The position numbers and the translations under genes are program-made. A stretch of 44,611 nucleotides of DNA, taken from positions 1 through 44,611 of IMG/VR virus record IMGVR_UViG_2703718850_000006; one strand, written 5' to 3'. Position 1 is the stretch's first letter; each line of letters begins with the position of its first letter. A model generated the notes under the pieces. It did not search any database. It had not been told where the DNA came from and saw only the letters and a program-made list of their open reading frames with translations. This stretch comes from a virus (Duplodnaviria; Heunggongvirae; Uroviricota; Caudoviricetes). Below, piece after piece: positions 13,201 through 37,098 of the stretch.

Positions 13201-13270
13201 GCGGAAGCTGCTCTTTAAAATCGGCGGTATCAATGCTTAAATCAATGACAAGGTCAGCAATCTGGTCCAA
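10247..13270 (-). CDS. H: tail tape measure protein
   Basis: 1007-aa ORF; N-terminus aligns with lambda H (M..DLV.DLS.D.A.F.EQ); coiled-coil-rich; apparent TTG start after GGGAGG. Confidence 0.9.
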   Translation of the reverse strand: MDQIADLVIDLSIDTADFKEQLPRVKNLLNGTAREAERAEARMKRFEESQKQAASATVIQTQAVVKHAQGHVSLAEDVERARLRMEALSRQMREEQVQAAALAAAQDKMAAAFYRQIDSVKQASAGLQELQRIQQQIRQARNSGGIAQQDYLALISEVTAKTRVLTQAEETATRQKTAFIRQLKEQTSRQKMTTTELLRAKAAQLGCSSAAEVYIRKMEKAGNTTHSLGLKSAAARRELGFMIGELARGNFGALRGSGITLANRAGWIDKLMTPKGLAVGGVIGGITAAVIGLGKAWMEGQEEGEAFNRQLELTGHYAGVTAGQLWALSKNLSGNGITQHAMAGSLAQVVGSGAFHGNDIGMVAKAAAQMERSVGQSVSDTISQFKRLKDDPVSAAKALDDELHFLTATQLEQIRVLGEQGRTSDAARIAMSALAEETGKRTSDIDNNLNALGSTLQTLSDWWKQFWDAAMNIGREDSLDAQIASLQEKIQRAKKFPWTKASTTGEYDQQQLDALQERKRQQDLQDAKEQAERNYQEQQKRRNAENAALNRMNETEAARHQREIARINAMQYADQAVRDAAIQRENERYEKAIKKKTPATRNDEATRLLLQYSQQQAQVEGQIAAARQSAGMATERMTEAHKQLLALQQRISDLAGKKLTADEKSVLAHKDELIQALTLLDAKQQELQKQTALNDLKKKTIQLTSQLAEEERAQRQQHDLDVAMAGMGDKQRQRYQSQLRLRQQYQQQLEQLERDSKQKGSYGSDAYRKAEQTLTDSLNRKLNENRRYWQQMDAAQGEWKNGTKRAFMNFTADADNAAGTAEQMFMSAFSSMGNGLATFVTTGKLNFKSFTSSVLSDMAKILAQATMMKAVKGIGSVMGFDFGDVKTNAEGGVYQSADLSRYSGTVVNRPTFFAFAKGAGVMGEAGPEAILPLRRGADGKLGVVAATCGSGMVMFAPQYNIEINNDGQNGQIGPEVMQAVYNLGKRAAEDFMQQQSRDGGQLSGVYR

Positions 13271-13589
13271 ATCTCATTCCTCCCGATATACCTTCCCCCA
13301 GATGCATCAGCTCTTCATCCGTGCGTTCAGGGATCACCCTGTCATCCGTAACCAGACTGAAATCATCCGCCGGAATACGTTCACCGGACACCATCTGAAC
13401 CATCAGCGACTTCAGTGTGGAAATCTGTGCATCCAGCCAGATATCCCCGAAACTCTGCTTCCGGAAGAAATCCCCCCATTCGCCCAGTTCTGACGCTGAC
13501 ATTTCTGATAACATCCGCCGCCAGTCTGCCCGCCGGAACTCACGGGCAAGCTGCATCACAAACTGCATCTCCCGCGTCAGGACTTTTCC
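13254..13589 (-). CDS. T: T segment of tail assembly chaperone G-T (-1 frameshift product)
   Basis: ORF 13254..13568 lies in the -1 frame relative to G and overlaps its 3' end; GGAAAAG at the junction. Confidence 0.55.
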   Translation of the reverse strand, partial: GKVLTREMQFVMQLAREFRRADWRRMLSEMSASELGEWGDFFRKQSFGDIWLDAQISTLKSLMVQMVSGERIPADDFSLVTDDRVIPERTDEELMHLGEGISGGMRFGPDC

Positions 13590-13966
13590 GGTGTCAGAGG
13601 AACCTGTTCACCGTTCTGAACATCACCGGTGGAGACCGGCATACCACTCAGGGATAAAACCAGACTGCCCCCGTCGCCAAGCGCGTCATAAGACCAGGTG
13701 TTTTTTACATCCTCATTCAGCGCATCCACATCCTGTGACGGGTCCGTATTCCACATTGACCGGGAAACCAGCCAGGCGTTGATATCCATCCCCATACGCA
13801 GAAATTCAATCTGACGTTCAGCCACCGGCATGGCATCATCCAGGGCGTCAAACTCAGCCGTCCGTTTCTGGACAAACGACAGATATTCCACCCGCTGCAG
13901 CCCGGACAGTTCTGTCATAACCACAGACTGATCACCGTAATTAAATGTGTCCTGTTTCAGAAACAT
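13577..13966 (-). CDS. G: tail assembly chaperone G
   Basis: ORF 13577..13987 trimmed to MFLK start (lambda G begins MFLK as I recall). Confidence 0.8.
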   Translation of the reverse strand: MFLKQDTFNYGDQSVVMTELSGLQRVEYLSFVQKRTAEFDALDDAMPVAERQIEFLRMGMDINAWLVSRSMWNTDPSQDVDALNEDVKNTWSYDALGDGGSLVLSLSGMPVSTGDVQNGEQVPLTPEKS

Positions 13967-14026
13967 AACCTTCTCCGCAAACAACAAAAAAACCCCGGCA
14001 TACCGGGGTACAAACAGACCGTCTGA

Positions 14027-14767
14027 TTAACCACCATTAACGGTAATACTGGCCACTGCGACCTGTGCGCCACCCGCTGTCATCCCGACAATCGAGGTGC
14101 TTCCCGCTTTCACACCTTTCACCGTGGCCACCATGCCACTCAGTGTAACCGTGGCGATCTCAGGAGAGGATGACGCCACACTCACCGTTTTATCAGATGC
14201 ATCTTCCGGTACTGTGCTGAATGTCAGCGTCGTCGTTGCCCCCACCCTGACACTGGCAGATGCCGGTGCCACCGTCAGACCGGTCACGCTAACAAGCCCG
14301 GTGCCTTCCTCTGCCAGATACGGACGTCCCACACCGCTGATTTTCACAGTGCGGGTCATCACCTCTTTAGAGGTAACAGTTTTCCCCAGCGAGCTCAGCC
14401 AGCCACGGAAAACATCAACAGTGCCGTTGGGATATTTGATACGAAACGCACAGACTTCACCAGAGTCGAACAACTGAACCAGTTTTTTCTGCCCGCTGTC
14501 ACCCGGACGCCAGGCCAGCGTCGCCGAAGTATCACCGACGGATTTTTGCCCCTGGGTTGTCGTTTTCCAGTCAGCATTTTCATCATCGAGATAATCGTCA
14601 TCTTCCGCATCTGCAGTCATTTCGCCCGGCTGTAAATCCTTCACCATCGCAAGACGCAGCCAGTCAGTATCTGACAACGGAGCCGCAAAGGCGTCCCCTT
14701 TGCCGGTATACATCCAGAACGTCGTCCCCGCGCCCTTCGTTTTTTCCAGTGGATTCGGTGTTGGCAT
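14027..14767 (-). CDS. V: major tail protein V
   Basis: ORF 14027..14785 trimmed to MPTPNP start after AAGGAG; 246 aa, the length I recall for lambda V. Confidence 0.9.
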   Translation of the reverse strand: MPTPNPLEKTKGAGTTFWMYTGKGDAFAAPLSDTDWLRLAMVKDLQPGEMTADAEDDDYLDDENADWKTTTQGQKSVGDTSATLAWRPGDSGQKKLVQLFDSGEVCAFRIKYPNGTVDVFRGWLSSLGKTVTSKEVMTRTVKISGVGRPYLAEEGTGLVSVTGLTVAPASASVRVGATTTLTFSTVPEDASDKTVSVASSSPEIATVTLSGMVATVKGVKAGSTSIVGMTAGGAQVAVASITVNGG

Positions 14768-14781
14768 TACCATCTCCTTGT

Positions 14782-15183
14782 TCAATTTGTATATGTGATC
14801 TGATACGTGATTTCCGCCATCGCCCAGGTGGCCATCTCGTTATCACGCTGATAGTTAAATCCCTGCGGGATCATGGTATCGATAAGATCTGAAAGTGCCG
14901 GAATATCTGTCAGAGCCGGGTAAATAATGTCATCCATCCACGTATCCAGTTCTGTATCCGGTGCCTGCGCCCGGATAAAGACCGCGACATGCAGAACCGC
15001 CTGCCAGTCAGCCTCATCCACCATTTTTCCGGTGTACTGCGCATCGCTCAGCCATACCGCCACGGCGGGCAGTTCCTGCGCATCAATAAAAGCAGGAAGT
15101 CCATCGAACAGGACGGTATTCTCCCTGCACGTCGCTTTCAGGCACGACAATACGGCCTGACGAATTTGTGTGTGTCGGTTCAT
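14782..15183 (-). CDS. U: tail terminator protein U
   Basis: 133-aa ORF, lambda U-like; ATGA overlap with Z stop. Confidence 0.9.
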   Translation of the reverse strand: MNRHTQIRQAVLSCLKATCRENTVLFDGLPAFIDAQELPAVAVWLSDAQYTGKMVDEADWQAVLHVAVFIRAQAPDTELDTWMDDIIYPALTDIPALSDLIDTMIPQGFNYQRDNEMATWAMAEITYQITYTN

Positions 15184-15758
15184 CGGGTCAGATATAACCT
15201 CAGTTGTTGTTTCAGGGCATACCCCAGCTGTTTCGGCATCTCGTTATCAATGACGCTTTTACGGGCATCCTCAAATGCCAGTGTCAGCGGACCGGACAGC
15301 GGAATTTTCACCACATCAATGGGGTAACGATTTTTGCCGTCAATACGCCGCATCACATGCCAGCGACCGTTCGCCAGTTGCTGAATAAAGGCATTCCGGA
15401 AGAGATATTTTCCCACTTTCAGCACACTGCCACGGTAATGTAACCTGCCACCACGCCGGGTCATTCTGACCTGTGCAGCCCCCAGTTTTATGGCGGGCAG
15501 GTTGCCGCGATTTACGCGAATACGGGCATACATTTTTCCGTCCGGGCTGGCTTTAAGTACCCTGACACGCTCACGCACCAGTTTCAGGGGGATCCCCTTC
15601 ACCTGGTTATCACCAGCCACAGTATTCTGCGCGACCTGCCGTGTGGCGACAGAGACAACCTTTGCCGCCACACGGTTCATCGCCCATGCGCTGGCCTGTG
15701 GCACCATACGGGTATCAAGGATGTCCAGATTACGGATGGCGTTTTCAAGACCTTTCAT
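15180..15758 (-). CDS. Z: tail completion protein Z
   Basis: ORF 15180..15872 trimmed to MKGLENAIRNL start; 192 aa like lambda Z. Confidence 0.85.
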   Translation of the reverse strand: MKGLENAIRNLDILDTRMVPQASAWAMNRVAAKVVSVATRQVAQNTVAGDNQVKGIPLKLVRERVRVLKASPDGKMYARIRVNRGNLPAIKLGAAQVRMTRRGGRLHYRGSVLKVGKYLFRNAFIQQLANGRWHVMRRIDGKNRYPIDVVKIPLSGPLTLAFEDARKSVIDNEMPKQLGYALKQQLRLYLTR

Positions 15759-16119
15759 AATATCGCCCCGTACTGATATCACCCCGGGAACTGTCACACC
15801 GTTGCAGGCGGATATAACAGCATCCCCTGTCGTCCGGAGTAATGCGATCCACCCGAAAAAGATCCCCACCAACCTCCAGCGTATCCAGACGGCGCAGTCC
15901 CGTAATATCTGCTGTTTTCACAAACAAAGACGGTGAAGAATCTTCAAACCGTACTCCTCCGGCAACGAACGAAATTTTTTCAGGATCATCAAAAACACCC
16001 CTGAGTGTTTTTCCTTCAAGCTGACCGGACGTAATTACCGCCGTAATCCCCATATGACAAAGAATGACCTCGTCAGCCATGGCGACGGCGGCATCAAACG
16101 GATTATCGAAATCTGCCAC
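15745..16119 (-). CDS. FII: head-tail joining protein FII
   Basis: ORF starting MADFDN (lambda FII-like), apparent GTG start after GGGGGAAAG. Confidence 0.85.
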   Translation of the reverse strand: MADFDNPFDAAVAMADEVILCHMGITAVITSGQLEGKTLRGVFDDPEKISFVAGGVRFEDSSPSLFVKTADITGLRRLDTLEVGGDLFRVDRITPDDRGCCYIRLQRCDSSRGDISTGRYYERS

Positions 16120-16132
16120 CTTTCCCCCACAT

Positions 16133-16513
16133 TCAACACATTTTCACGAGGCCACTTTCTGCCATGCTGGCTGCCACCACAGCAGATACACGAAACACTT
16201 CTCCCGGACGTACAAATGCCACGGGGTTATCCCGTGTGGCGTGGAGTGCATTGACATGTAACATCACCACAGCTTTGACCATGACCATATCCACAGAATT
16301 TCGGTTCTCACTCTCCCCACGTTCAGATCGTGTTTCGTTTTTTTGTTGTGGTTCTTCATCATCCTTATACAGGCCGTCTGAACCATCACTTAATTCTTCT
16401 TCCCACTCCGCCAGACGTTGTTCAAGATCAGCTTTAGAGCCTGAAATATCGGCATCGCGCCCGAGTACTGCCGCCAGCTCCTGAAGACGCGCTGTTATTT
16501 CTTCTTTTGTCAT
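16133..16513 (-). CDS. FI: DNA packaging protein FI
   Basis: ORF 16133..16645 trimmed to MTKEE start; C-terminus ...LHATRD.PVAFV.PG..FRVSA... as in lambda FI. Confidence 0.8.
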   Translation of the reverse strand: MTKEEITARLQELAAVLGRDADISGSKADLEQRLAEWEEELSDGSDGLYKDDEEPQQKNETRSERGESENRNSVDMVMVKAVVMLHVNALHATRDNPVAFVRPGEVFRVSAVVAASMAESGLVKMC

Positions 16514-16563
16514 CACATCTCTCCTGTGCGATAAAGAAAAAGGCGGGAATATCCCGCCTGACC

Positions 16564-17592
16564 TTATTTCACCTGAACTACCACAAACGCGTCCGGATCC
16601 GGCAACACCATCAACGGCGCAGACTGCGTCATGGTATATTCGCACCCCGGGTCCCCCACCTCTAACCAGTGTTTCGGATAACGAATTGCAGAGGTGATCC
16701 CTTCACTCAGCGCCTGGTTATCCTGGATTGCGCCATAACAACGGACACCCTCCACCTGAGTGTTTCCAAGAATCAGTGTGCCTTCCGGCAGATAACGCTG
16801 CTCATCCCCGTTTTCATCAACATACGTTGTTTTCGCCACCATGATGGCCAGATCACCGTAATAACCTTTAAAAGAAACCACGGAACCCAGATCTTTCAGC
16901 GCGGTTTCCAGTTCAGATTTTGAGCCACGGCGGGTATCCAGTTTTTCACGAAACAGCTTAAAACCGTTCAGCATACGCCAGACAGTACCGTCCATAATCG
17001 CAATATTGATGGTACCGGAAGCAAAATCGCAGTACGCATCCAGATCATGCGTCGGATCAAAGGTGTCAGCATTCTGTTTTGACCATTCGCGTCCCCCTGC
17101 CTGCGTAATGTTATTGGCGGCAGAACGACCAAAATCCACTTCCACCGTCTCAAACTGTTCACCGCTCATGGTGTACTTACCCTGCAGAACAGCGCTGACC
17201 GCCTGCATTTCTTCCACCTGCACAATCGCTTGCTCTTCCTGTTTCAGGTTGTCAGTCAGAATACGCAGGCGACGGTAGGCCGGGTCATTAAGACGGGCCG
17301 GATCTTCCCCCGGAAGACGCTCCACCGCCTGCTGATAATCCAGCCGGTGTTTTGGTTTAACATAGCCGGGGCGTAACACGCGGGTTTCACCACCACGACT
17401 GCGCAGTACCTTACCTGACACAACCGGAGACACATATGCCGCAACCGGTGTTTTTCCGGTGATTTTATCCAGCATCACTTCCTGAGTATGGAAAGTGACC
17501 GTACGACGAAAAAACAGCTCCAGAAACAGCGCACGGAATTTCACTTTCTGCTCGGTGTAGCCGAGCAACTGACGCGTGGTAAATAACCCCAT
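16564..17592 (-). CDS. E: major capsid protein E
   Basis: ORF 16564..17631 trimmed to ATG after AAGGAAAG; 342 aa, strong similarity to lambda E. Confidence 0.95.
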   Translation of the reverse strand: MGLFTTRQLLGYTEQKVKFRALFLELFFRRTVTFHTQEVMLDKITGKTPVAAYVSPVVSGKVLRSRGGETRVLRPGYVKPKHRLDYQQAVERLPGEDPARLNDPAYRRLRILTDNLKQEEQAIVQVEEMQAVSAVLQGKYTMSGEQFETVEVDFGRSAANNITQAGGREWSKQNADTFDPTHDLDAYCDFASGTINIAIMDGTVWRMLNGFKLFREKLDTRRGSKSELETALKDLGSVVSFKGYYGDLAIMVAKTTYVDENGDEQRYLPEGTLILGNTQVEGVRCYGAIQDNQALSEGITSAIRYPKHWLEVGDPGCEYTMTQSAPLMVLPDPDAFVVVQVK

Positions 17593-17661
17593 AATTGACT
17601 TTCCTTTAAAAACACAAACGGGCCGCATCACGACCCGTTTTTTCAGTTAATCACTTCACCA

Positions 17662-17997
17662 TCAGGCGTGGCTGATGGCACTTCCCACAAACGCGTTGGC
17701 TTTTTTCACCGCATCCACCGAATCCGGCCAGACCAGCGATTCGGTGGCAAACGTACCGCTTTTGTAGTACGTCAGTGTGGGCTCGGTCCCGGCCAGCGCC
17801 AGTACCAGCACCCCCACAGCCGTTCCGGCTTTCTGACCATCCCATGCCACCAGTTTTCCGCTGGCGTCATCCAGCATCAGTGGCGTCAGTGAAGGCGTGG
17901 CAACACTGATACCACTGGTACCTGTTGCGGTATATACCGGATCGCTTCCGGCAAAAATGCGCCCGTCCGCGCGCTTTTCTGTGGTGGTTTTAATCAT
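17662..17997 (-). CDS. D: head decoration protein D
   Basis: ORF 17662..18027 trimmed to ATG after AGGAGA; 111 aa, lambda D-like. Confidence 0.9.
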   Translation of the reverse strand: MIKTTTEKRADGRIFAGSDPVYTATGTSGISVATPSLTPLMLDDASGKLVAWDGQKAGTAVGVLVLALAGTEPTLTYYKSGTFATESLVWPDSVDAVKKANAFVGSAISHA

Positions 17998-18037
17998 TTT
18001 CTCAGTCTCCTGATTTATCTGAATCACGGATCCCCGC

Positions 18038-19654
18038 TTACGGCATACTCATCAGCAGTTCTTCTTCCCCGTTCCCGGCAGTTCCGCCACCGGAAACGGC
18101 ACTGGCGGCATGCTGAGCCATGAAGCGCTCAAAAAGTGTTACCTGTGACGGTTGCGATACTGATGGCGCAGCTGCCAGCAGCGTTTTCGCCTGCTCCACT
18201 GTCATTCCAGGTTGTTCAGCCAGCGCCTGTGCCAGTTTTTCGCGTCCTTTTGCTTCCGGCAACGCAATAATTTGATCGCCGGTACTTGCCGTACCGGTTG
18301 CCGGTGCCGCTGCCAGTAGCATTTTCGCCTGTTCCACCGTCATTCCCGGCTGTTCAGCCAGCGCCTGTGCGAGTTGTTCACGCCATTTTGCTTCCGGAAG
18401 TGCCATAATCTGCTCGCCGGTACTTGCCGCACCGGCAACCGGTGCCGCTGCCAGTAACGTTTTCGCCTGCTCCACCGTCATTCCCGGCTGTTCAGCCAGC
18501 GTCCGTGCCAGTTGTTCACGTCCTTTTGCTTCCGGAAGTGCCACAATCTGATCGCCTGTGCTGTCAGTACCGGCAACCGGTGCTGCCGCCAGTAATGTTT
18601 TTGCCTGCTCAACTGACATTCCCTGCTGACCTGCCAGCATCTGCGCCAGTTTTTCGCGTCCTTTCGCCTCCTGACAATTCAGGATCCCCATCACGCGCTG
18701 ATTTTCCCGGGACACCGCTTCAGCAACGGTGAGATTTTTTGTTGTCATCGTATTCTCCTGTGTAACAGAGTCGTTCAGAGCAGAAACCATTACATCAACG
18801 GCATCTGCAGCATTAATCAGTTGATCAGCCAGGCCTGTATCAATGCCTGCCTGACCGTCATAAACGGCAGCCTCGGTATTCATCACCGCCTCTGAACTCA
18901 GCCCCGTATAAAGCGCCACCTTGTCGACAAACATCCGGCGGGCCTCATCAATACGGCGCTGAAAATCCGCACGCACACCTGTCGGCAACGCCTGAATACT
19001 GTTGCCGTCAACCTTGTGCTGCCCGGAGTAAATCAGCGTGATATCCACGCCTTCCTGTGCCAGTTGTTTCTCGTAACTGGTGTGCGCCATCATCACACCA
19101 ATCGAACCAATTTTTGCCGTCTGCGTGACCAGCCGACGCGTACAGGCCGCCGCCAGCAACATGGCGGCTGAACAGGCCATGTCATTACACAGCGCCCACA
19201 CGGGCTTCTGTTCCCGCAGACGGTAAATCATGTCAGCACAGTCAAACGCCCCGGCAGCCTGACCACCCGGACTGTCGATATCCAGTAAAATGCCGCGTAC
19301 ATCCGGGTCGTTCACCGCTGACTTAAGACGGGCAGTCAGACCGTCATAACCGGTCATACCGGAATATGGCCGCAGGGTACCCATTTTATGTACCAACGTG
19401 CCGCTCACCGGCAGAATGGCAATACCATTTTTCACCTGGTAACTCTTTACCGGACGCGGACCACCAGTCATATAATCGGTAACCGCCAGCTGCATACCAT
19501 CGGCATCAAGCTGAACGGCCTGCTGCGGAACGGCAAGGCTGCCCGCCCCCATCTCCTTACCCAGTGCGCAAAAGAAAACCCGCGCATAGGCGGGTTCCAG
19601 TAAAAGCGGCTCATTAAATGCCATCGCGGCAATATGTGATAAATTACAGCGCAT
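18038..19654 (-). CDS. C: head maturation protease / scaffold (C, with embedded Nu3-like region)
   Basis: 538-aa ORF; N-terminal S49/ClpP-like region matches lambda C; C-terminal third has four 46-aa tandem repeats. Confidence 0.9.
   Translation of the reverse strand: MRCNLSHIAAMAFNEPLLLEPAYARVFFCALGKEMGAGSLAVPQQAVQLDADGMQLAVTDYMTGGPRPVKSYQVKNGIAILPVSGTLVHKMGTLRPYSGMTGYDGLTARLKSAVNDPDVRGILLDIDSPGGQAAGAFDCADMIYRLREQKPVWALCNDMACSAAMLLAAACTRRLVTQTAKIGSIGVMMAHTSYEKQLAQEGVDITLIYSGQHKVDGNSIQALPTGVRADFQRRIDEARRMFVDKVALYTGLSSEAVMNTEAAVYDGQAGIDTGLADQLINAADAVDVMVSALNDSVTQENTMTTKNLTVAEAVSRENQRVMGILNCQEAKGREKLAQMLAGQQGMSVEQAKTLLAAAPVAGTDSTGDQIVALPEAKGREQLARTLAEQPGMTVEQAKTLLAAAPVAGAASTGEQIMALPEAKWREQLAQALAEQPGMTVEQAKMLLAAAPATGTASTGDQIIALPEAKGREKLAQALAEQPGMTVEQAKTLLAAAPSVSQPSQVTLFERFMAQHAASAVSGGGTAGNGEEELLMSMP
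18164..18670 (-). repeat. in-frame 138-bp tandem repeat array (about 3.7 units) inside C
   Basis: Nucleotide periodicity (gcgttttcgcctgctccac... recurring at about 18181, 18319, 18457, 18595) and protein repeats EAKGRE.LA..LAEQPGMTVEQAKTLLAAAP. Confidence 0.8.
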
Positions 19655-28756: not shown

Positions 28757-28906
28757 AGATCAGTAAGCACTTCTCTGATAGGCTCATACCGCTTTTGCGC
28801 AAAGCAGATGGGCCTGAGGTTTGCTTGTGATCCCAACGCATGAGCAGATGGCTGGCAGGTGCCGCTAACACCCACCAGCCGCCCATTACCACAAATTAAA
28901 AAGCCT

Positions 28907-29104
28907 TCACTGCGGAAGGCGTCTGTAACAACCGAACTGATAATCTGCCAGACCCGCCATAACAAGCTGGGTCAGTATTAACTGGCAGCGTTCGCGTGAA
29001 AGGTAAGTATTCTGCGCAATTTCCCCGACGGTCGCCGGTTCGGTGACGCTTAATTCATTAAATACCACTCTGGCAGTTTCGGTCATATCCTGCTGTTTTA
29101 GCAT
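28907..29104 (-). CDS. hypothetical small protein (65 aa), possible DNA-binding
   Basis: Internal start of ORF 28907..29329 (MLKQQDMTETARV...); a terminator hairpin lies inside the longer ORF's N-terminal extension. Confidence 0.4.
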   Translation of the reverse strand: MLKQQDMTETARVVFNELSVTEPATVGEIAQNTYLSRERCQLILTQLVMAGLADYQFGCYRRLPQ

Positions 29105-29223
29105 GCCTTTTTCCCTTTCCCGGTTAACGTGACATACCAATAACTCTTGTCGAAAAAGCCAGCAAGCTGAAAGACCGGTATTCGCAACCACCAGCGCATT
29201 TAACGTCCCGTGTCGTTTTTCGG

Positions 29224-29248
29224 GCACAAAAAACCCGCCAAACGGCGG
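29224..29248 (-). terminator. rho-independent terminator (candidate tR-prime)
   Basis: Minus-strand CCCGCC-GTTT-GGCGGG followed by TTTTTTGTG. Confidence 0.6.
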
Positions 29249-29281
29249 GTTTAAGGAAGGAGTCGAAGCAACCACTCTTAA

Positions 29282-29309
29282 CATCATAATTGAATTTTTA
29301 CGTACGTAA
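29282..29309 (-). promoter_or_regulatory. candidate sigma-70 promoter (possible late promoter) with palindrome over the -35
   Basis: Minus-strand TTTACG-N16-TATGAT; 14-bp perfect palindrome TTTACGTACGTAAA. Confidence 0.4.
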
Positions 29310-29614
29310 ACCACAAATACGCCACTCAAATGTTAATGCCATATAACAAAACAAAACATACGAATAACACATATTACATCAAATACATCATTGTTATTTT
29401 TCAATGAAAAATGAGTAAATAATGTATTTCATTAATTAAATTCCGCATTACACAAAAATATCGACAAATTATACCAACGCGCATAAATGAGATCTTGATC
29501 ATATTATCAATCACTAAATTAAACTTGCCTCTTGAAATAACCACATTGATTAGATGAATATTTGTCGCGCAGTGACATCATTTTTTAAAAATAGTTCAAA
29601 AAAAAGGGTTCGTG

Positions 29615-30718
29615 ATGAAAAAATTAACGGTGGCAATTTCTGCTGTGGCTGCATCAGTACTGATGGCGATGTCTGCTCAGGCAGCAGAGATTTATAATAA
29701 AGACAGCAACAAGTTGGATCTGTACGGAAAAGTTAATGCTAAGCACTACTTCTCCTCTAACGATGCAAATGATGGCGACACAACTTATGCTCGTCTGGGT
29801 TTCAAAGGCGAAACTCAGATCAACGATCAACTGACTGGTTTCGGTCAGTGGGAATATGAATTCAAAGGAAACCGTACTGAAGAACAGGGAGCAGCCAAAG
29901 ATAAAACCCGTCTTGCATTTGCAGGGCTTAAATTCGGTGACTACGGCTCCGTCGATTACGGTCGTAACTACGGTGTAGCATACGATATCGGTGCATGGAC
30001 TGACGTTCTGCCAGAATTCGGTGGAGATACCTGGACCCAAACAGATGTATTCATGACTGGTCGCACCACTGGTGTTGCAACTTATCGTAACAACGACTTC
30101 TTTGGTCTGGTTGATGGTCTGAATTTTGCTGCACAGTACCAGGGTAAGAATAATCATGATCGTAGTAGCTTAGATAACTACACCAAAGGCAATGGCGATG
30201 GTTTTGGTTTCTCTGCGACCTATGAATACGAAGGTTTCGGCATTGGTGCAACGTATGCGAAATCTGATCGTACCGACACTCAAGTCAAATTGGGTAAACT
30301 TCTCCCAGGAGTATTTGCTTCCGGCGAAAATGCAGAAGTCTGGGCTGCAGGTCTGAAATACGACGCAAACAACGTTTATCTGGCAACAACCTATTCAGAA
30401 ACCCAGAATATGACTAAATTCGCAGATTACTTTGTGGCTAATAAAGCACAAAACTTCGAAGCTGTTGCACAATATCAGTTCGATTTCGGTCTGCGTCCGT
30501 CTGTTGCTTATCTGCAATCAAAAGGTAAAGATCTTGGCATTTTTGGTGACCAAGATTTAGTCAAATATGTTGATGTTGGCGCAACTTATTATTTCAACAA
30601 AAATATGTCTACCTTCGTTGATTACAAAATCAACCTGCTTGACAAAAATGACTTTACTAAAGCTCTTGGTGTAAACACTGACGATATCGTTGCTGTAGGT
30701 ATGGTATACCAGTTCTAA
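29615..30718 (+). CDS. nmpC: outer-membrane porin, NmpC/OmpD-like (OmpC family)
   Basis: ORF 29612..30718 trimmed to ATG; signal peptide [23 protein letters not shown] and general-porin hallmarks; opposite strand between Q and late genes as in DLP12. Confidence 0.85.
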
Positions 30719-30737
30719 TCTGGTTAATAAAGGATAT

Positions 30738-30762
30738 GCTGAGAAGGTTTTATCTTCTCAGC
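30738..30762. other. 9-bp stem-loop between porin stop and Q stop
   Basis: gctgagaag-gttttat-cttctcagc. Confidence 0.4.
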
Positions 30763-30856
30763 ATATAAGTGGCTCCCTCAAGCCACTTCTTTAAGAAGCA
30801 TTAGAGCCCTGCTTCTTACTATCTAAACTTTCTGTTATATATTACCCTTTATCTTG

Positions 30857-30884
30857 GGGGTGTTTTTACGCCCCATTTTTTATT
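30857..30884 (+). terminator. rho-independent terminator downstream of porin
   Basis: ggggtg-ttttta-cgcccc followed by attttttatt. Confidence 0.55.
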
Positions 30885-30898
30885 AAAAAATAATCGTA

Positions 30899-31282
30899 TT
30901 AATTAAGCTTAGTAACATCAATATCCATCTCTAAGCAAATGTCTAATGCCATTAACATACCTTCGATTATTCCCTCTGCTTTCTGTAACCTTTTCCCGAT
31001 ATACCCATCAGAGCAATTATGCTTCCGCGCCAGCATCATAAACGTCATCCCACCAACATAATAATCCACCAGCAAATCATGTAAGCCATTGTTGCTCTTT
31101 TTCAGACAGGCCATACATCCACAAATGATCATCGCGTCATCGTCACAGCATTGCGGACGAGATCTTACTTTTGAAGGAATTAATCCCTTAAAACCGGCGG
31201 CAACGGACGACCAGGTCACATCTTCATGATTATTAGCCGCCCACGCTCCCCAACGCTCAAGAACCATCTGAATATCACGCAT
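30899..31282 (-). CDS. Q: late antiterminator Q (QuuD-like)
   Basis: 127-aa [25 protein letters not shown]...; matches the DLP12 QuuD/YbcQ antiterminator family as I recall it. Confidence 0.8.
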
Positions 31283-31539
31283 CAGCGCAGTACCTCCTGC
31301 ACCAGTTTTTCAAACTTTCCAACTTTGGTTTCCAGCTCTGCCACACAATCCACCAGTTCATCCACTGCTTTTTGTGCGCGGTGTTTCGCCTGCATCAGTT
31401 CCCTGAGCGCTGGCACCATATCCCGACGAATGGCATCTTTTGTTACACCTGTTTTTTCCAGTTGTTCCGCCTGTCGCAACATTTCCTGTGCCTGTTTACG
31501 TAATTGTTCAGGGGTAAAAGTCATTATCTGGTTGTTCAA
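31282..31539 (-). CDS. hypothetical protein (85 aa, predicted helical)
   Basis: ORF translationally coupled to Q (ATGA); overlaps the 3' end of the DnaB-like gene. Confidence 0.45.
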
Positions 31540-32935
31540 AAGAAACGCTCCATCTTCTGCTGTCAGTTCTTTTATTGCTGTATCTACGCGGCTGGGGCTG
31601 CTGCATTGGGGTGGAAAGAATCTGTGCGCTTTCCTGGTCTACGGGCAGAAAATGTCCGTTATAAAAACGCCGGTAAATCGTCCCCAGAGAACCGTTACGT
31701 TGTTTCGTGATATTGATTTCTGCAATGCCTCTGGCCTGCGTATCCGGGTTGTACACTTCATCCCTGTAAAGCATCAGAATGATGTCTGCATCCGCCTCTA
31801 TTTCTCCGGAATTTTTCAGGTCTGAGTTCATGGGACGTTTATTTGGTCTGGACTCCACACCGCGGGAGAGCTGACTCAGCGCAATCAACGGAAAACCACC
31901 GGATTTTGCCAGGCCTTTAAGCCCCTTTGAGATTTCACCCACGGCAAGGTCATGACGCCCCGTGGTTCGGGTTTTTATCAGCCCGAGATAATCAACCACC
32001 ACCAGTGCCGTTTCCGGATGTTTAATCAAATGGTGTTTCGTTGTTACGCATATCTCGTCAATGGTCAGGTTCGCCTGGTCCACCATCCAGATATTGCGCC
32101 CGGTCATCCGCCCCACCCCTTGTGAGAAACGCGCCCAGTCTTCGTCTTCAAAGTGAGCGACAGATTTCAGACGTGATACCGGCATTCCTCCAGCCGCAGA
32201 TACCATGCGCTCACCAATCTGGATGTTCGCCATTTCCATTGTGAACAGAAGAACACCATGCCCCTGCTCAGTCACCTTGTCGATGATATCCAGCGCCAGT
32301 TCTGTTTTCCCCATCGAAGGGCGCGCCGCGATGAATATCAGGTCTCCTGGCTCCATGCCGCCTGTTTTTGCATCCAGTTCATCAATACCGGTCATCAACG
32401 TCCTGGATTTCTCCAGCCCCTGATTCCGGCATTCAACACGGTCAACCACCTCCGGAAGCACATCATCAATATGTACCGGCTGAATAATGCCCTTTTCCGT
32501 CGACAATGAGGCCATCATGTTTTGCGCATCCTTCAGGGCATCTTCAGCTGCTTCACAGGTATGCGCATCGCGTAATTTCTGCAATGCTTCGGCCAGTGTT
32601 TTTTCTGCATCACGCAGTGCGGCATTGCGTCGCAGTGCTGCAACATAGTGTTCCAGAGATGACTTCACCCAGGTTTTACGCCCGGTATCAGTAATCACCG
32701 GGGCAAGTTCCGGCATCTCATTGCACAACAGCACAGGATCAATCACGCCGGACACACGGGCCTGTCTGCAGATGCCTGTGTAGATATCCCGGTACGGTCG
32801 TACAGAAAAAACGTCCGCCGGTAGTGTGACCAGAATATCCATCACTTCCGGATCTGCCCCACGCAAAAAGAATGCGCCAATAACAGCACCTTCCAGATCA
32901 TCGTTACGCCAGACCGGGCTTTTCTGGCTGATCAT
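31508..32935 (-). CDS. replicative DNA helicase, DnaB family
   Basis: 475-aa ORF with Walker A ARPSMGKT and DnaB-type C-terminal RecA fold motifs. Confidence 0.9.
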   Translation of the reverse strand: MISQKSPVWRNDDLEGAVIGAFFLRGADPEVMDILVTLPADVFSVRPYRDIYTGICRQARVSGVIDPVLLCNEMPELAPVITDTGRKTWVKSSLEHYVAALRRNAALRDAEKTLAEALQKLRDAHTCEAAEDALKDAQNMMASLSTEKGIIQPVHIDDVLPEVVDRVECRNQGLEKSRTLMTGIDELDAKTGGMEPGDLIFIAARPSMGKTELALDIIDKVTEQGHGVLLFTMEMANIQIGERMVSAAGGMPVSRLKSVAHFEDEDWARFSQGVGRMTGRNIWMVDQANLTIDEICVTTKHHLIKHPETALVVVDYLGLIKTRTTGRHDLAVGEISKGLKGLAKSGGFPLIALSQLSRGVESRPNKRPMNSDLKNSGEIEADADIILMLYRDEVYNPDTQARGIAEINITKQRNGSLGTIYRRFYNGHFLPVDQESAQILSTPMQQPQPRRYSNKRTDSRRWSVSFEQPDNDFYP

Positions 32936-33819
32936 GCTGCCACACCTCCGGCATGTGCACGGTAGCTGGGCCAGTTAAAGGACAACAGGTTACGGCCACC
33001 ATCCGTAACCCTGTCAGCAATACGTGGACTGATGTATGCCCACAACGCCTTCGGTGAAAGATTGCTGATCAGGATGGTTGGCAGAATGCTTTCGTACCGG
33101 GCATTGATAATTTCCTGAAGAATGGCCATTTCCGCCGCGCTACCAAACTGGACACCCACTTCGTCGATAATCAGCAGATCCAGTGATGCATAATGCTCAA
33201 TCACCTCATCCGCAGTTTTTTCGCTGTCATTCCGCCAGCAGTTTTTCACAGCCCGGGTCAGGCGCATCACGTCGGTGATCTCAACACTGGCGAGATAGTT
33301 GCGGATGACATATTTTGCCATCGCAACCGCCAGGTGATTTTTCCCGGTGCCACAACTGCCAGTCAGCACGAGATTTGTGCCGTTCTCCAGAACATCCGCC
33401 CAGTTTTCGGCATAGCGACGACAGGCAGCAAGATTTCTGGCTGCGTCAGGATTAATCTCCTGATAGTTTTCAAACTCACAGTCACGAAAACGCAGTGCAA
33501 TTCCGGCGTTATCAGTCAGTTCTTCCGCCTTCAGGGACGACAACTCCATAATCACATCGTTGATTTCAGCACTCAGGCAGTGAGGGCAGTGTGAAATTTT
33601 CTCTCTGTCCTCGCCATTACGATCCCCCCACACCAGAATATGCGTGTGATATTCGCCATGTTTTTCGCAATATCCGCGACCTTCACGCATCCGGCAGGAA
33701 CGATAAGGCCACGGTTTTTCCCCAGTCTCCGCAAACGCCATCTCAGACCGTAACTCATCCATCCGCGCCTGTAGTCTTGTTTGTTGTTCACGCAGGTTAA
33801 ACGTCATCATCGCTGTCAC
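32932..33819 (-). CDS. helicase loader, DnaC/IstB-like AAA+ ATPase
   Basis: 295-aa ORF with Walker A GSCGTGKNHLA and Walker B LLIIDEVG; ATGA-coupled to DnaB-like gene. Confidence 0.85.
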   Translation of the reverse strand: MTAMMTFNLREQQTRLQARMDELRSEMAFAETGEKPWPYRSCRMREGRGYCEKHGEYHTHILVWGDRNGEDREKISHCPHCLSAEINDVIMELSSLKAEELTDNAGIALRFRDCEFENYQEINPDAARNLAACRRYAENWADVLENGTNLVLTGSCGTGKNHLAVAMAKYVIRNYLASVEITDVMRLTRAVKNCWRNDSEKTADEVIEHYASLDLLIIDEVGVQFGSAAEMAILQEIINARYESILPTILISNLSPKALWAYISPRIADRVTDGGRNLLSFNWPSYRAHAGGVAA

Positions 33820-33820
33820 C

Positions 33821-34813
33821 TCAGAATGTTAAGTTGTCACTGGATTTACCGAATTCGTCAGACATGGCACCAAGACCAGACAGGATATCTATCTGTCGCT
33901 GTCGCCCACCTCCGGGAGCGGCTGGCTGTTGCCAGAAATCTTCGAAGTGACGATCGGGTCCAAAGAACGTCGCAGCCTGCTTCACGAACTGTGTGCCGGT
34001 ATTTCCTGTGACACGTACCCAGGCGGCATAACGCCTCACGCCATCAAGCATGGTTTCGGGTGTCACACCTTCCCTGATTCGGGCTTTCCAGGCTTTGAAG
34101 GCTGCCGACTTGGAATTACCACCAGCACGTTTGGGATATTCCTGCCAGGCCTGTTCAAATTCTGGTGAATATTCCTGTCGGGCAGAACGCGCTGGTGCAG
34201 ACGCGTCAGCGGATGCGCCAATAGTGTTTTTAGTCTCCGTTGTAATCTCTGTAGTAATCTCTGTATTTGTATCAACATTCGGCGTATCCCCTGTTCCGTT
34301 ATGACGTTGGGGGGTGTTCCGTTTTAACGTAATAGCTGTGTCGCTGACTGTGTTATTGCTGTTGCTTTCTGACGAAACAGAAGAAGGTGTGGTGATGGCA
34401 GCAATTGCCTGTGGGTTGATCCCGACAAACAAAATATTGCTGCATTTCACCCCGTCTAGCATTTCCACCGTGCGTAAATCCAGAGTAATAAACCCGGCAT
34501 CGCGAAGACGCTTCAGCGCATCTGCGGTTTCCCTTTTCCCAAAACCAAACTGCTCAGCAAACGCCTGATAGCTTCTTTGCAGCTTGTCACCCTGAAAACG
34601 CTTGCGATATCCCAGTAAAGCCCCGGTATGCTCATCCCGGACTTCTGTCGGGCGGTACCAATAAACGATCTCTGAGAGCAGGGCGATAGCGGTCGCATCC
34701 GGACGACCACTGGGTAGCCGAATATGTTTCCACCAGTTCGCTGGTGTGACATTGCCGGAAATATTAATTTGACCAATAGCTATAACTTCCGGTGTGGGGG
34801 CGTAACGACTCAT
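33821..34813 (-). CDS. replication initiation protein (O-like replisome organiser)
   Basis: 330-aa ORF at the O position; winged-helix-like N-terminus; internal direct repeats. Confidence 0.65.
   Translation of the reverse strand: MSRYAPTPEVIAIGQINISGNVTPANWWKHIRLPSGRPDATAIALLSEIVYWYRPTEVRDEHTGALLGYRKRFQGDKLQRSYQAFAEQFGFGKRETADALKRLRDAGFITLDLRTVEMLDGVKCSNILFVGINPQAIAAITTPSSVSSESNSNNTVSDTAITLKRNTPQRHNGTGDTPNVDTNTEITTEITTETKNTIGASADASAPARSARQEYSPEFEQAWQEYPKRAGGNSKSAAFKAWKARIREGVTPETMLDGVRRYAAWVRVTGNTGTQFVKQAATFFGPDRHFEDFWQQPAAPGGGRQRQIDILSGLGAMSDEFGKSSDNLTF
34230..34277. repeat. iteron-like direct repeats inside the O-like gene (candidate origin)
   Basis: Tandem GTAATCTCTGTA x2 perfect plus flanking degenerate copies; encodes ...TEITTEITTE... 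Confidence 0.5.
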
Positions 34814-35109
34814 ACAGCCTCCTTACGCGGCATAACAATGGTGTAACCCCGGGCAGGCTGGAACCGGGCTTTTGCATCAATAGTGAGCGTTGCAATTTTT
34901 CGGATACGCAGATACCCCGCCCTTTCCAGGGCCAGGGTTTCTCTGAACATTGCCTGTTTTGAACAGCAACAAAAATCGGCAAGGACCTGGTGATCAATAA
35001 CCCTCTCACCTTCACCGTCTGAAGAACCCGACATCAAAACACGCAACATAATCAGGCGCTGAATCGGATTATCGAAAACACTTCCGCATACAAACTGAAA
35101 ACAGTTCAC
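34810..35109 (-). CDS. hypothetical protein (99 aa)
   Basis: ORF ATGA-coupled to O-like gene. Confidence 0.5.
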   Translation of the reverse strand: MNCFQFVCGSVFDNPIQRLIMLRVLMSGSSDGEGERVIDHQVLADFCCCSKQAMFRETLALERAGYLRIRKIATLTIDAKARFQPARGYTIVMPRKEAV

Positions 35110-35330
35110 ACGGCACCTCCCAGGCGTTTAAACATTTTTCCGGACTGAAACACCGCCAGTGGGTAGCTAATGGTGTAGTTACGCCCCAGTAATTCACACA
35201 CAACTTTCTGGTTTTCGGTGCTGACCAGACAAACCCGCAGAACGTGACCGTTGCTGGTGGCGAACCACTGCCCCACACGGGGGCAACGGTTGTATCGGTG
35301 ATACAGGGAATTAACGATGCGGCGAATCAT
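35106..35330 (-). CDS. hypothetical protein (74 aa)
   Basis: ORF ATGA-coupled to downstream gene. Confidence 0.45.
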   Translation of the reverse strand: MIRRIVNSLYHRYNRCPRVGQWFATSNGHVLRVCLVSTENQKVVCELLGRNYTISYPLAVFQSGKMFKRLGGAV

Positions 35331-35560
35331 GGGTACACCTCCCGCACATCAGCCATGAGCATTTTGCTGGCTGTTTCCAGCGCCTGGTCGGCGCTAATTT
35401 GCATGACAGCCAGTGAATGAGGAACAAAAGCACCGGCATATTCTGTTTCACTGGTGGCGTGTTTATGCGCCATATCTGCAATCACAGAAATCTCAATCAA
35501 CGCATCCATCAGTGTCCTGATAACTGCAACGGTTGTATCCGGACGAGTGTTATTGCGCAT
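35327..35560 (-). CDS. hypothetical protein (77 aa)
   Basis: ORF with RBS GGGAGGTG, ATGA-coupled downstream. Confidence 0.5.
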   Translation of the reverse strand: MRNNTRPDTTVAVIRTLMDALIEISVIADMAHKHATSETEYAGAFVPHSLAVMQISADQALETASKMLMADVREVYP

Positions 35561-36215
35561 GGCGCACCTCCCATTGATTACGACAGAAAGTGGAGTGATT
35601 CAGGTGGGTTTCAGCTTCACGGAATGCTTCAATGCAGCTCTCGTAGTACCGCATTGTGCGCAGACTTAACCCAAGCTGAAGCATCATCAGACCATCAAGG
35701 GTGATGTAATAACCTCGCAAAGAGTCACCATAGATGTGATAAGTACCCGGTATGAAATTGCGGGTGAAAAATTCGCGCGAGCAGTTCAGGTACTCGATTT
35801 TGTCGACGATGTTCTGGTGCATGCGCTTGAAATGACAGGCAACATGCAGAGAGAAAATAACGGCCTTGCCGTTGACGACTTCGATTTTGAGGAATGGGGA
35901 AGTTGGGACAGTAGCCATGATGGCAGCCTCCGTATGCAATGGATAACTTCCACCACCGGAGCTGCGAAACTCATGGGTGGTGAACTGAACAGGGTTCGCA
36001 GTACCGGCGCATACGGAAACCGGCGAGCCTTTCGGCTCCCCTGCCCAGCCCACCATAATTCTGGCGTGCGTGAGCGCGGACGATAAAAAAGACGCTGGCG
36101 CGTCATATATCGCCGTATGCAATTCCGGGCTGCGACCCCCGGCACCCGCTTTATAAGGTGCAGAGACAGTGTAACGTTCCAAAAGTGCAGAATCAATATT
36201 CAGGTAGCGGATCAT
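35550..36215 (-). CDS. hypothetical protein, duplicated gene copy A (221 aa)
   Basis: ORF with strong RBS GGGAGGTG; near-identical to copy B over about 200 residues. Confidence 0.6.
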   Translation of the reverse strand: MIRYLNIDSALLERYTVSAPYKAGAGGRSPELHTAIYDAPASFLSSALTHARIMVGWAGEPKGSPVSVCAGTANPVQFTTHEFRSSGGGSYPLHTEAAIMATVPTSPFLKIEVVNGKAVIFSLHVACHFKRMHQNIVDKIEYLNCSREFFTRNFIPGTYHIYGDSLRGYYITLDGLMMLQLGLSLRTMRYYESCIEAFREAETHLNHSTFCRNQWEVRHAQ

Positions 36216-36871
36216 AGGTGCACCTCCCGTTGATGACGACGGAAAGCGGAATGTACCTGGACGGTTTCAGCTTCATGGAATGCATCAATACAGCTCTCGT
36301 AGTACCGCATTGTGCGCAGACTTAACCCAAGCTGAAGCATCATCAGCCCATCAAGGGTGATGTAATAACCACGCAGGGAGTCACCATAGATGTGATAAGT
36401 ACCCGGTATGAAATTGCGGGTAAAAAATTCGCGTGAGCAGTTCAGATACTCGATTTTGTCGACGATGTTCTGGTGCATGCGCTTGAAATGGCAGGCTACA
36501 TGCAGGGAGAAAATAACGGCCTTACCGTTAATAATCTCAATTTTGAGGAATGGGGAAGTTGGGACAGTAGCCATGATGGCAGCCTCCGTATGCAATGGAT
36601 AACTTCCACCACCGGAGGTTCCAATCTCACTGGTGGTGAACTGAACAGGGTTGGAACTACCGGCGCATACGGAAACCGGCGAGCCTTTCGGCTCCCCTGC
36701 CCAGCCCACCATAATTCTGGCGTGCGTGAGCGCGGACGATAAAAAAGACGCTGGCGCGTCGTATATCGCCGTATGCAATTCCGGGGTTCCAATCCCGGCA
36801 CCCGCTTTATAAGGTGCCGGAACAGTGTAACGTCCCGAAATTGCAGAATCAATATGTTGGTTGCGGATCAT
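36212..36871 (-). CDS. hypothetical protein, duplicated gene copy B (about 219 aa)
   Basis: ORF 36212..36892 trimmed to MIRNQ start; ATGA-coupled to copy A. Confidence 0.6.
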   Translation of the reverse strand: MIRNQHIDSAISGRYTVPAPYKAGAGIGTPELHTAIYDAPASFLSSALTHARIMVGWAGEPKGSPVSVCAGSSNPVQFTTSEIGTSGGGSYPLHTEAAIMATVPTSPFLKIEIINGKAVIFSLHVACHFKRMHQNIVDKIEYLNCSREFFTRNFIPGTYHIYGDSLRGYYITLDGLMMLQLGLSLRTMRYYESCIDAFHEAETVQVHSAFRRHQREVHL

Positions 36872-36888
36872 TTTGTACCTACTCGCCG

Positions 36889-37098
36889 TCAATCCGCGTT
36901 TTCGCGCTGATTCCAGTCATGAACAGCACGTTCTTTCGAATCAGGGATCTGGTTTGCGTTACAGCAAGTACATGCGACGTAATAACCATCATCGCCATCC
37001 AGAAAATATTTCACCTCAATGAGTTGTACTTCCGGATTTCCGCAGAACGGGCAAGGTTTCAGATCGACATCACCAGTTACACACGTCTTGGTTTGCAT
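36889..37098 (-). CDS. Lar-family restriction alleviation-like protein (zinc ribbon)
   Basis: 69-aa ORF with KPCPFCG...C.CC motif as I recall it in Rac Lar/RalR. Confidence 0.65.
   Translation of the reverse strand: MQTKTCVTGDVDLKPCPFCGNPEVQLIEVKYFLDGDDGYYVACTCCNANQIPDSKERAVHDWNQRENAD

Follow-up and report, generated by a model that had tools for sequence, protein, structure and literature searches.

A probable Lc/NmpC-type lysogenic-conversion cassette, with a porin gene and an IpeX-like 3' region, between Q and the late promoter of a lambda-like prophage

The virus sequence IMGVR_UViG_2703718850_000006 from IMG/VR (44,611 nt; the whole stretch is referred to here as the window) has the gene content of a complete-looking lambdoid prophage, with integrase, S24-type repressor, antirepressor and replication genes, lambda-like head and tail genes, J, lom and tail fibres. 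On the + strand it encodes a general porin of the lc/nmpC type, which lies tail to tail (convergent) with the gene for the antiterminator Q. Beyond the porin, the - strand encodes a 65-aa open reading frame (ORF), an N6/N4 DNA methylase, tRNA-Gly(UCC), two holins, a GH108 endolysin and the terminase. The coordinates of the features are collected in Table 1. We consider it very probable that the region is an autonomous 1.6-kb Lc/NmpC lysogenic-conversion cassette in a lambda-like prophage that appears complete, with Q on one side and the late promoter PR' on the other.

The listed porin ORF (29612..30718, +) has zero internal stops in the ORF list and starts with a GTG one codon 5' of the ATG at 29615. 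This ATG is the counterpart of the annotated start of Lc in phage PA-2 and is preceded by an AAGGG Shine-Dalgarno sequence. The Pfam Porin_1 profile (PF00267) matches over its full length (positions 1-337 of 337, E=8e-152), and solved OmpC, OmpK36, OmpF and PhoE chains align end to end with porin residues 24-367 (best E 1e-136). The mature chains in the Protein Data Bank begin at porin residue 24, in agreement with the predicted signal cleavage. Thus, a full-length, intact porin with a signal peptide, as claimed in an earlier sequence-only reading of this DNA, is borne out. The translation contains the loop-3 motif PEFGG (as LPEFGGDTW) and a C-terminal YQF (as VYQF); in porins, PEFGG is the constriction motif and the C-terminal aromatic residue serves assembly. 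From the matches to solved structures (E ~1e-136) we infer a 16-strand trimeric barrel fold. A single-sequence AlphaFold2 model of the porin had a mean pLDDT of 31.8 and was unusable for mapping loops. The porin is probably functional.

The protein is 93% identical to PA-2 Lc and 62% identical to K-12 OmpC. The best matches among phage records are 'OmpD/NmpC/porin' genes of 36 lambdoid phages, including PA-2 (lc) and phage 434, the porin copy of which bears IS5. By these comparisons the gene is an intact phage porin of the Lc/NmpC group, and its flanks are as in PA-2, DLP12, phage 434 and many prophages, in line with the NmpC-type lysogenic-conversion moron first proposed. The protein also scores 529.9 against the NCBIfam subfamily model 'porin OmpC' (cut-off 484), and RefSeq names the identical gene of E. 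coli C5 'porin OmpC' (ompC), from which the gene could be taken for a host OmpC orthologue and not phage cargo. The much closer match to Lc than to OmpC makes the RefSeq name a family-level label. In addition, the gene is flanked by Q and by the lysis genes in a prophage with integrase, repressor, head and tail genes, and the cassette junctions fall within Q and at PR', so that a host origin of this kind is extremely improbable.

Homologues of the queried region, of some kind, occur in 3368 of 5426 complete E. coli genomes (~62%), although matches of at least 99% were found in only two of the 5426, both cattle-derived. We surveyed alleles in 123 oriented loci (IMG/VR matches, reference loci and the window itself). 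Of the 114 copies that are not truncated at a contig end, 112 have an intact porin, and these comprise 21 protein alleles. The sequence-only reading had set an intact window gene against the disrupted nmpC of the K-12 prophage DLP12. The K-12 gene is indeed split by IS5 and the window gene is intact, but intactness is not exceptional; it is the norm among prophage copies, and K-12 is the exception. The window allele is unchanged in four other records of the 123-locus set, and the next closest allele is 94% identical. The identical protein is encoded in E. coli C5 and in six IMG/VR contigs (seven independent records). Thus, the intactness is no sequencing accident.

Against PA-2 lc, the ratio of nonsynonymous to synonymous divergence (dN/dS) is 0.064 at a dS of 0.53, which indicates that the gene is maintained by selection. 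Five other allele comparisons gave dN/dS of 0.06-0.09, and dS over all six alleles ranges from 0.52 to 0.78. On this evidence the window porin is an old, diverged and rare lineage under strong purifying selection, and no remnant. The opposite possibility is that the gene is silent or decaying like K-12 nmpC, intact by chance and contributing nothing to the lysogen. The IS5 disruption in K-12 gives this some credit, as do an AT-rich upstream region that could be silenced and the word 'quiescent' applied to nmpC of E. coli B in the title of Prilipov 1998. The selection estimate, the high fraction of intact copies, the seven records with identical protein and the expression of related prophage copies (see below) all speak against it, and we regard such a remnant as quite improbable.

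Variation among the allele proteins is limited to about seven segments (residues ~49-52, 88-99, 177-191, 221-238, 268-274, 307-313 and 342-355). In an alignment to solved porins, these coincide with the sites of insertions and deletions between OmpC and OmpK36. By this alignment and textbook topology, the variable segments probably correspond to external loops L1, L2 and L4-L8, with the L3 constriction loop invariant.

The boundaries of the cassette are defined by comparison with phages that carry Q of the same type. The window Q is 77% identical to the Q933-type Q of Stx2 phage P13374. Homology to the Q region of Sakai prophage Sp5 ends after GAGATGGAT, at about codon 120, and resumes exactly at a -35 element beyond the porin. 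The last 7 Q codons differ from Q933, which places the right cassette junction at ~30922; the cassette swaps the last ~24 codons of a Q933-type gene for 7 new codons. In P13374 and Sp5, the PR' block that corresponds to 29310..29229 of the window overlaps the Q stop codon (TTTACG-16-TATCAT in Sp5). As homology breaks in Q and resumes at PR', a 1.6-kb cassette (~29311..30922) separates Q from PR'.

The assignment of PR' itself relies on Sp5. There, the promoter has been mapped by differential RNA sequencing (dRNA-seq) and is followed by an RNase E site (GUAUU) at +173 and by tR' 258 nt downstream (Sy et al. 2020, PMC7547250). In our analysis, the Sp5 TTTACG-16-TATCAT element lies 258 nt from an intrinsic terminator and has GUAUU at ~+171, and is therefore identified as PR'. 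The coordinates given by Sy et al. do not fit the first post-Q hairpin in Sakai, but fit the second terminator after a genome-version offset. In the window, the hairpin that follows the predicted PR' start is probably a tR'-type terminator or part of a Q-loading leader. It is common to Stx phages, phiP27, SfV and PA-2, and is annotated in SfV as a putative rho-independent terminator. The PR' block is conserved in PA-2, although its flanks are not, and is present in porin-less phages too. Besides PR', only the first hairpin of the 258-nt StxS leader of Sp5 is kept in the window, where the sequence then runs into the module of the 65-aa ORF and methylase.

Because PR' lies beyond the cassette, late Q-dependent transcription does not cross the porin. 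The cassette is thus placed, on sequence grounds, between Q and PR' and outside the predicted late transcript. The porin had been described as antisense to the late operon; the opposite orientation stands, but an overlap with late transcription does not. The region has the marks of a moron: Q and PR', which overlap in Sp5 and P13374, are separated by 1.6 kb in the window, GC content deviates (27.6-42.8% in the cassette, compared with 50.9% in the window), and the gene has its own terminator and a putative promoter.

In lambda and in Stx phages PR' follows or overlaps Q. If PR' were directly downstream of Q here also, the porin would be inside the late unit, read antisense by late transcription, with mutual interference between porin and late expression. 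The spacer between Q and porin is conserved between the window and PA-2, and on the - strand a hairpin followed by CCTTTATT lies at 30766..30734, both of which would suit such an arrangement. No - strand promoter-like site was found between Q and the porin, which speaks against a PR' directly after Q in 30719..30898. The sequence that overlaps the Q stop in Sp5 and P13374 is found on the far side of the porin, and conservation of the spacer is explained by IpeX (see below). The layout with PR' beyond the porin is also general in the survey: the 127-aa Q is convergent with the porin at all 108 loci that extend far enough, and at 112 of the 123 the PR' block precedes the porin by 300-370 nt. We consider the late-unit arrangement improbable. 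In phiP27 (extract 2672..3901), a GIY-YIG nuclease gene occupies the same Q-PR' junction as the porin cassette. Cargo may settle repeatedly at this junction, which would be a different site from the classical moron position after tR'.

The functional unit extends past the porin stop codon to include a structured 3' untranslated region (3'UTR) homologous to the small RNA (sRNA) IpeX. The sequence-only reading had ended the unit at 30718, which is about 165 nt short. The terminator with which it credited the gene is present, but lies ~140 nt past the stop codon and not directly after it. The 180-nt spacer from porin stop to Q stop is homologous to those of PA-2 and DLP12, which are identical to each other. 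In the literature, the porin-Q spacer of DLP12 and PA-2 is described as IpeX, a repressor of OmpC and OmpF. From the DLP12/PA-2 type, the window IpeX is predicted to repress OmpC and OmpF too.

The window 3'UTR has a predicted minimum free energy of -60.1 kcal/mol (z=-7.6), and none of 200 dinucleotide shuffles was as stable. The IpeX alignment shows 85% mean column identity, with two fully conserved islands. A consensus structure from 18 distinct variants contains 39 pairs, five of them compensatory, with the caveats that the covariation comes from a single lineage and that hairpin 2 was fixed by the search pattern. All five compensatory pairs are contributed by the window-type allele (four lie in hairpin 1), which makes this allele the one informative natural variant for IpeX structure. 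The terminator stem is kept across alleles with one G-C to G-U change. The window variant of hairpin 1 occurs in seven IMG/VR contigs, six of which encode the identical porin; by comparison, the conserved motif of hairpin 2 is found in more than 119 contigs, almost all of which are of the common type. An Rfam search over 26500..31500 (E up to 1) returned the tRNA and two chance-level matches, and none for the 3'UTR or the PR' leader. At one IMG/VR locus (L094), homology is lost right after the IpeX terminator (...TAATAACTTTGGTAATGACTCC), in what looks like an insertion or rearrangement junction on the Q side.

Upstream of the porin, GC content falls to 27.6% (29311..29611) from 50.9% over the window, so the AT-rich character noted earlier is confirmed. 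The proximal ~95 nt before the porin start, leader included, are nearly invariant in all alleles, and the distal part (29311..~29480) shows no relationship to the PA-2 type and is ~60 nt shorter. A CRP-like site aligns with the site annotated in PA-2. Its half-sites (GAGAT..TCA(C/T)A) are kept across the alignment while the flanks have diverged. The resemblance to the CRP consensus, judged by eye, does not reach significance alone; it is the conservation of position that supports it. A by-eye candidate promoter, TTGAAA-18-GAATAT at 29532..29561, would place the CRP site near -72.5.

Expression and regulation are documented for related genes. NmpC of the LF82 prophage Perceval is expressed 10-fold over the local background (PMC9928086). 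In CFT073, nmpC is strongly higher at 37 C while ompC falls (PMC12890032). A contribution of NmpC to heat resistance has been reported for strain AW1.7, and RybB is reported to target nmpC mRNA (PMC3333887).

We identified a candidate site for direct interaction of IpeX with ompC mRNA. A stretch that is unpaired in the IpeX consensus has 26 nt unchanged between the window and K-12 and contains AAC(C/U)UUCUGUUAUAU. The candidate seed within it can form 15 contiguous base pairs with ompC -21..-7, covering the Shine-Dalgarno sequence GAGGG. Pairing was tested with a gapless-run statistic against dinucleotide shuffles, plus segment duplexes. The ompC score was reached by one of 500 shuffles for the K-12 allele and by four of 500 for the window allele. 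A two-helix duplex of the K-12 allele with ompC has -26.7 kcal/mol, and none of 300 shuffles was as good. The ompA leader and the porin's own leader, used as controls, gave background scores only; ompA is a reported non-target of IpeX. The seed is followed by GTTATAT-ATTAC-CCTTTAT (as RNA, GUUAUAU-AUUAC-CCUUUAU(U/C)), and the 5' end of MicC, the E. coli sRNA with which the host represses ompC, is GUUAUAU-G-CCUUUAUU. The GUUAUAU...CCUUUAU segment of IpeX is predicted to pair with the MicC target segment of ompC. We tentatively propose that IpeX, instead of regulating without base pairing, could be a phage-borne, 3'UTR-embedded MicC mimic, in which AAC(C/U)UUCUGUUAUAU...CCUUUAU would pair with ompC -33..-7 (the MicC site plus the Shine-Dalgarno sequence) and block translation; we hold this to be possible and somewhat short of an even chance. 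By alignment, the window allele keeps the seed with one G-U-compatible change while the flanking hairpin is recoded. The ompC-pairing lead may be new or may already be superseded.

By analogy with PA-2, DLP12 and other prophages, we predict that in the lysogen a promoter of its own would drive transcription of the cassette, without dependence on the lytic programme and with probable CRP and temperature inputs. The Sec signal peptide would direct export of the porin, which would form a trimeric barrel of 16 strands. The 3'UTR, within the mRNA or after processing, would lower OmpC and OmpF synthesis, and repression of ompC may work by antisense pairing of the single-stranded IpeX stretch with the ribosome-binding site. 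The net effect would be the replacement of host porins by a phage porin that differs in the presumed surface loops. This could alter permeability as well as the availability of receptors for phages and colicins that depend on OmpC or OmpF, with a diffusion channel kept.

Several observations weigh against this account. A sigma-70 consensus scan found no + strand promoter 5' of the porin, so that the promoter is inferred from conservation only. The low-GC upstream region could be open to silencing by H-NS-like proteins, and the 'quiescent' of the E. coli B title points the same way. The last 213 residues of J (4458..7856, -) are 97-98% identical to lambda J, the LamB-binding type, and lowering OmpC therefore would not block the phage's own primary receptor. 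This implies that exclusion would act mainly on other phages or colicins, or on OmpC-assisted adsorption via side tail fibres, and not as self-exclusion through J. With regard to pairing, the window IpeX allele is weaker than that of K-12 (-23.2 kcal/mol with ompC, 11 of 300 shuffles as good), and IpeX-ompF pairing was no better than that of shuffles (106-123 of 500). The 2006 work of Castillo-Keller and colleagues is said to have found no complementarity to ompC and Hfq-independence for ompC. Lastly, hairpin 1 read on the - strand (13-bp stem, then CCTTTATT) is terminator-like and directly downstream of Q. It may also terminate the Q transcript, and this would offer another explanation for the compensatory changes.

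A further possibility is that the cassette is expressed but that the selected benefit is physiological, for example in resisting heat, in growing at the temperature of the host, or in the flux of nutrients and antibiotics. The rise of nmpC at 37 C in CFT073 and the heat-resistance role in AW1.7 are as expected from such a benefit, and with a LamB-type J self-exclusion via OmpC is not obvious. Allele variation in the presumed surface loops (by known topology) fits pressure from phages, colicins or immunity. IpeX, according to the literature, specifically removes known phage and colicin receptors. The two benefits are compatible, and we consider a primarily physiological one unlikely, although it deserves more weight than the other alternatives discussed here.

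The region holds a classic, long-known and very common lysogenic-conversion gene. What the window adds is a rare, divergent porin and IpeX allele with compensatory changes, the cassette junctions, and a testable antisense model for IpeX. The divergent allele provides a natural experiment on the structure of IpeX and on the candidate seed for pairing with ompC. Phage porins alter the lysogen surface and with it phage and colicin sensitivity, antibiotic entry and immune recognition. With a homologue in so many complete E. coli genomes, correct annotation matters, given the RefSeq label 'porin OmpC'. As the cassette is not part of the late transcript that depends on Q, its expression should be a trait of the lysogen and not of lytic growth.

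Elsewhere in the window, the module of tRNA, methyltransferase and 65-aa ORF is also found in phiP27, SfV and many E. coli prophages, and Stx phages have tRNAs and stx there. A prophage of E. coli C5 is collinear with the window, with 97-99.8% identity over 5..34264, and differs at 34265..39881 (the immunity/early region). A protein with an SPFH/Band-7 domain is encoded at 41603..42430 (+), between the immunity region and the integrase, and may be an accessory gene.

Table 1. Features of the porin cassette, its flanks and the immunity region, in window coordinates.
Feature	Position	Strand	Remarks
tRNA-Gly(UCC)	27419..27491	-	Between PR' and holins
N6/N4 DNA methyltransferase (348 aa) and 65-aa ORF	27710..29104	-	Between PR' and holins
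Hairpin with U-run, AAACCCGCC-GUUU-GGCGGGUUUUUU	29229..29254	-	Predicted fold; ~22 nt after predicted PR' start
Late promoter PR' homologue, TTTACG-16-TATGAT	29310..29283	-	Promoter-like match; left cassette junction
Putative porin regulatory region	29311..29614	+	Candidate promoter, from conservation
CRP-like site, AAATGAGATCTTGATCATATTA	29485..29506	+	Alignment columns match CRP site annotated in PA-2 record (extract 1363..1383)
lc/nmpC-type general porin, coding sequence	29615..30718	+	367 aa
Porin signal peptide	29615..29683	+	23 codons; identical to 23-aa peptide annotated in PA-2; mature chain begins AEIYNKD
Structured 3'UTR, IpeX sRNA homologue	30719..~30884	+	~165 nt; homology to DLP12/PA-2 3'UTRs
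IpeX hairpin 1	30734..30766	+	Predicted fold
IpeX hairpin 2	30767..30788	+	Predicted fold
IpeX hairpin 3	30792..30818	+	Predicted fold
Candidate seed, AACTTTCTGTTATAT	30826..30840	+	Conserved, single-stranded; complementary to ompC -21..-7
Porin/IpeX intrinsic terminator, GGGGTGTTTTTACGCCCC and T-run	30857..30881 (or 30857..30874)	+	Ends 18 nt before Q stop
Antiterminator Q, QuuD/Q933 type	30899..31282	-	127 aa; PF06530, E=5.5e-52
Two tandem Ash/Rha-domain paralogues	35550..36892		Immunity/early region
ORF6N/KilAC antirepressor	37098..37952		Immunity/early region
S24 repressor	38417..39109		Immunity/early region

Among the closest known systems is the lc locus of PA-2 (J02580). The porin is of the same family and in the same position, with ~88% nucleotide identity and an identical signal peptide. 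Shared as well are the proximal leader, the position of the CRP site, the 3'UTR, the terminator and the PR' block upstream. The window porin differs by 25 substitutions and a 2-aa insertion, clustered in the variable segments. The distal ~170 nt of the upstream region are unrelated, and the stem of hairpin 1 in the 3'UTR is recoded with compensatory changes. The window phage has a lambda-type J, in contrast to PA-2, which is OmpC-dependent. PA-2 lysogens make Lc and lose OmpC, and so resist OmpC-dependent phages, including PA-2 itself.

DLP12 of K-12 (qsr') has the same layout of quuD (Q), porin and lysis genes, a 127-aa Q and a 3'UTR equal to that of PA-2. Its nmpC is split near the 3' end by IS5 and the prophage is defective, whereas the window gene is intact and the prophage looks complete. 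IpeX of DLP12 and PA-2 is in the same place as the window 3'UTR, is of similar length (167 nt, compared with ~165 nt) and has the same three hairpins and terminator. The window allele is the most divergent seen, with hairpin 1 recoded, three additional nucleotides in the loop of hairpin 3 and one C-to-U change in the candidate seed.

IpeX resembles MicC in having GUUAUAU and CCUUUAU(U/C) in the order of the MicC 5' end, and in the same ompC leader segment as predicted target. The two blocks are split by AUUAC in IpeX and by G in MicC, and the predicted IpeX pairing also takes in the Shine-Dalgarno sequence. MicC is a free-standing gene, whereas IpeX is embedded in the 3'UTR of an mRNA. We note this as a resemblance in sequence and do not claim common ancestry.

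OmpD of Salmonella belongs to the same OmpC/OmpF/PhoE superfamily, and the literature treats nmpC as its E. coli counterpart. OmpD is a core chromosomal gene and not phage-borne; the comparison is by family and literature. Like the porin cassette, the stx morons are cargo between Q and the lysis genes of lambdoid phages that have the same Q933-type Q and PR'. The stx genes are downstream of PR'-tR', on the late strand and Q-dependent, whereas the porin cassette precedes PR' and runs on the other strand, with a terminator of its own and a putative promoter.

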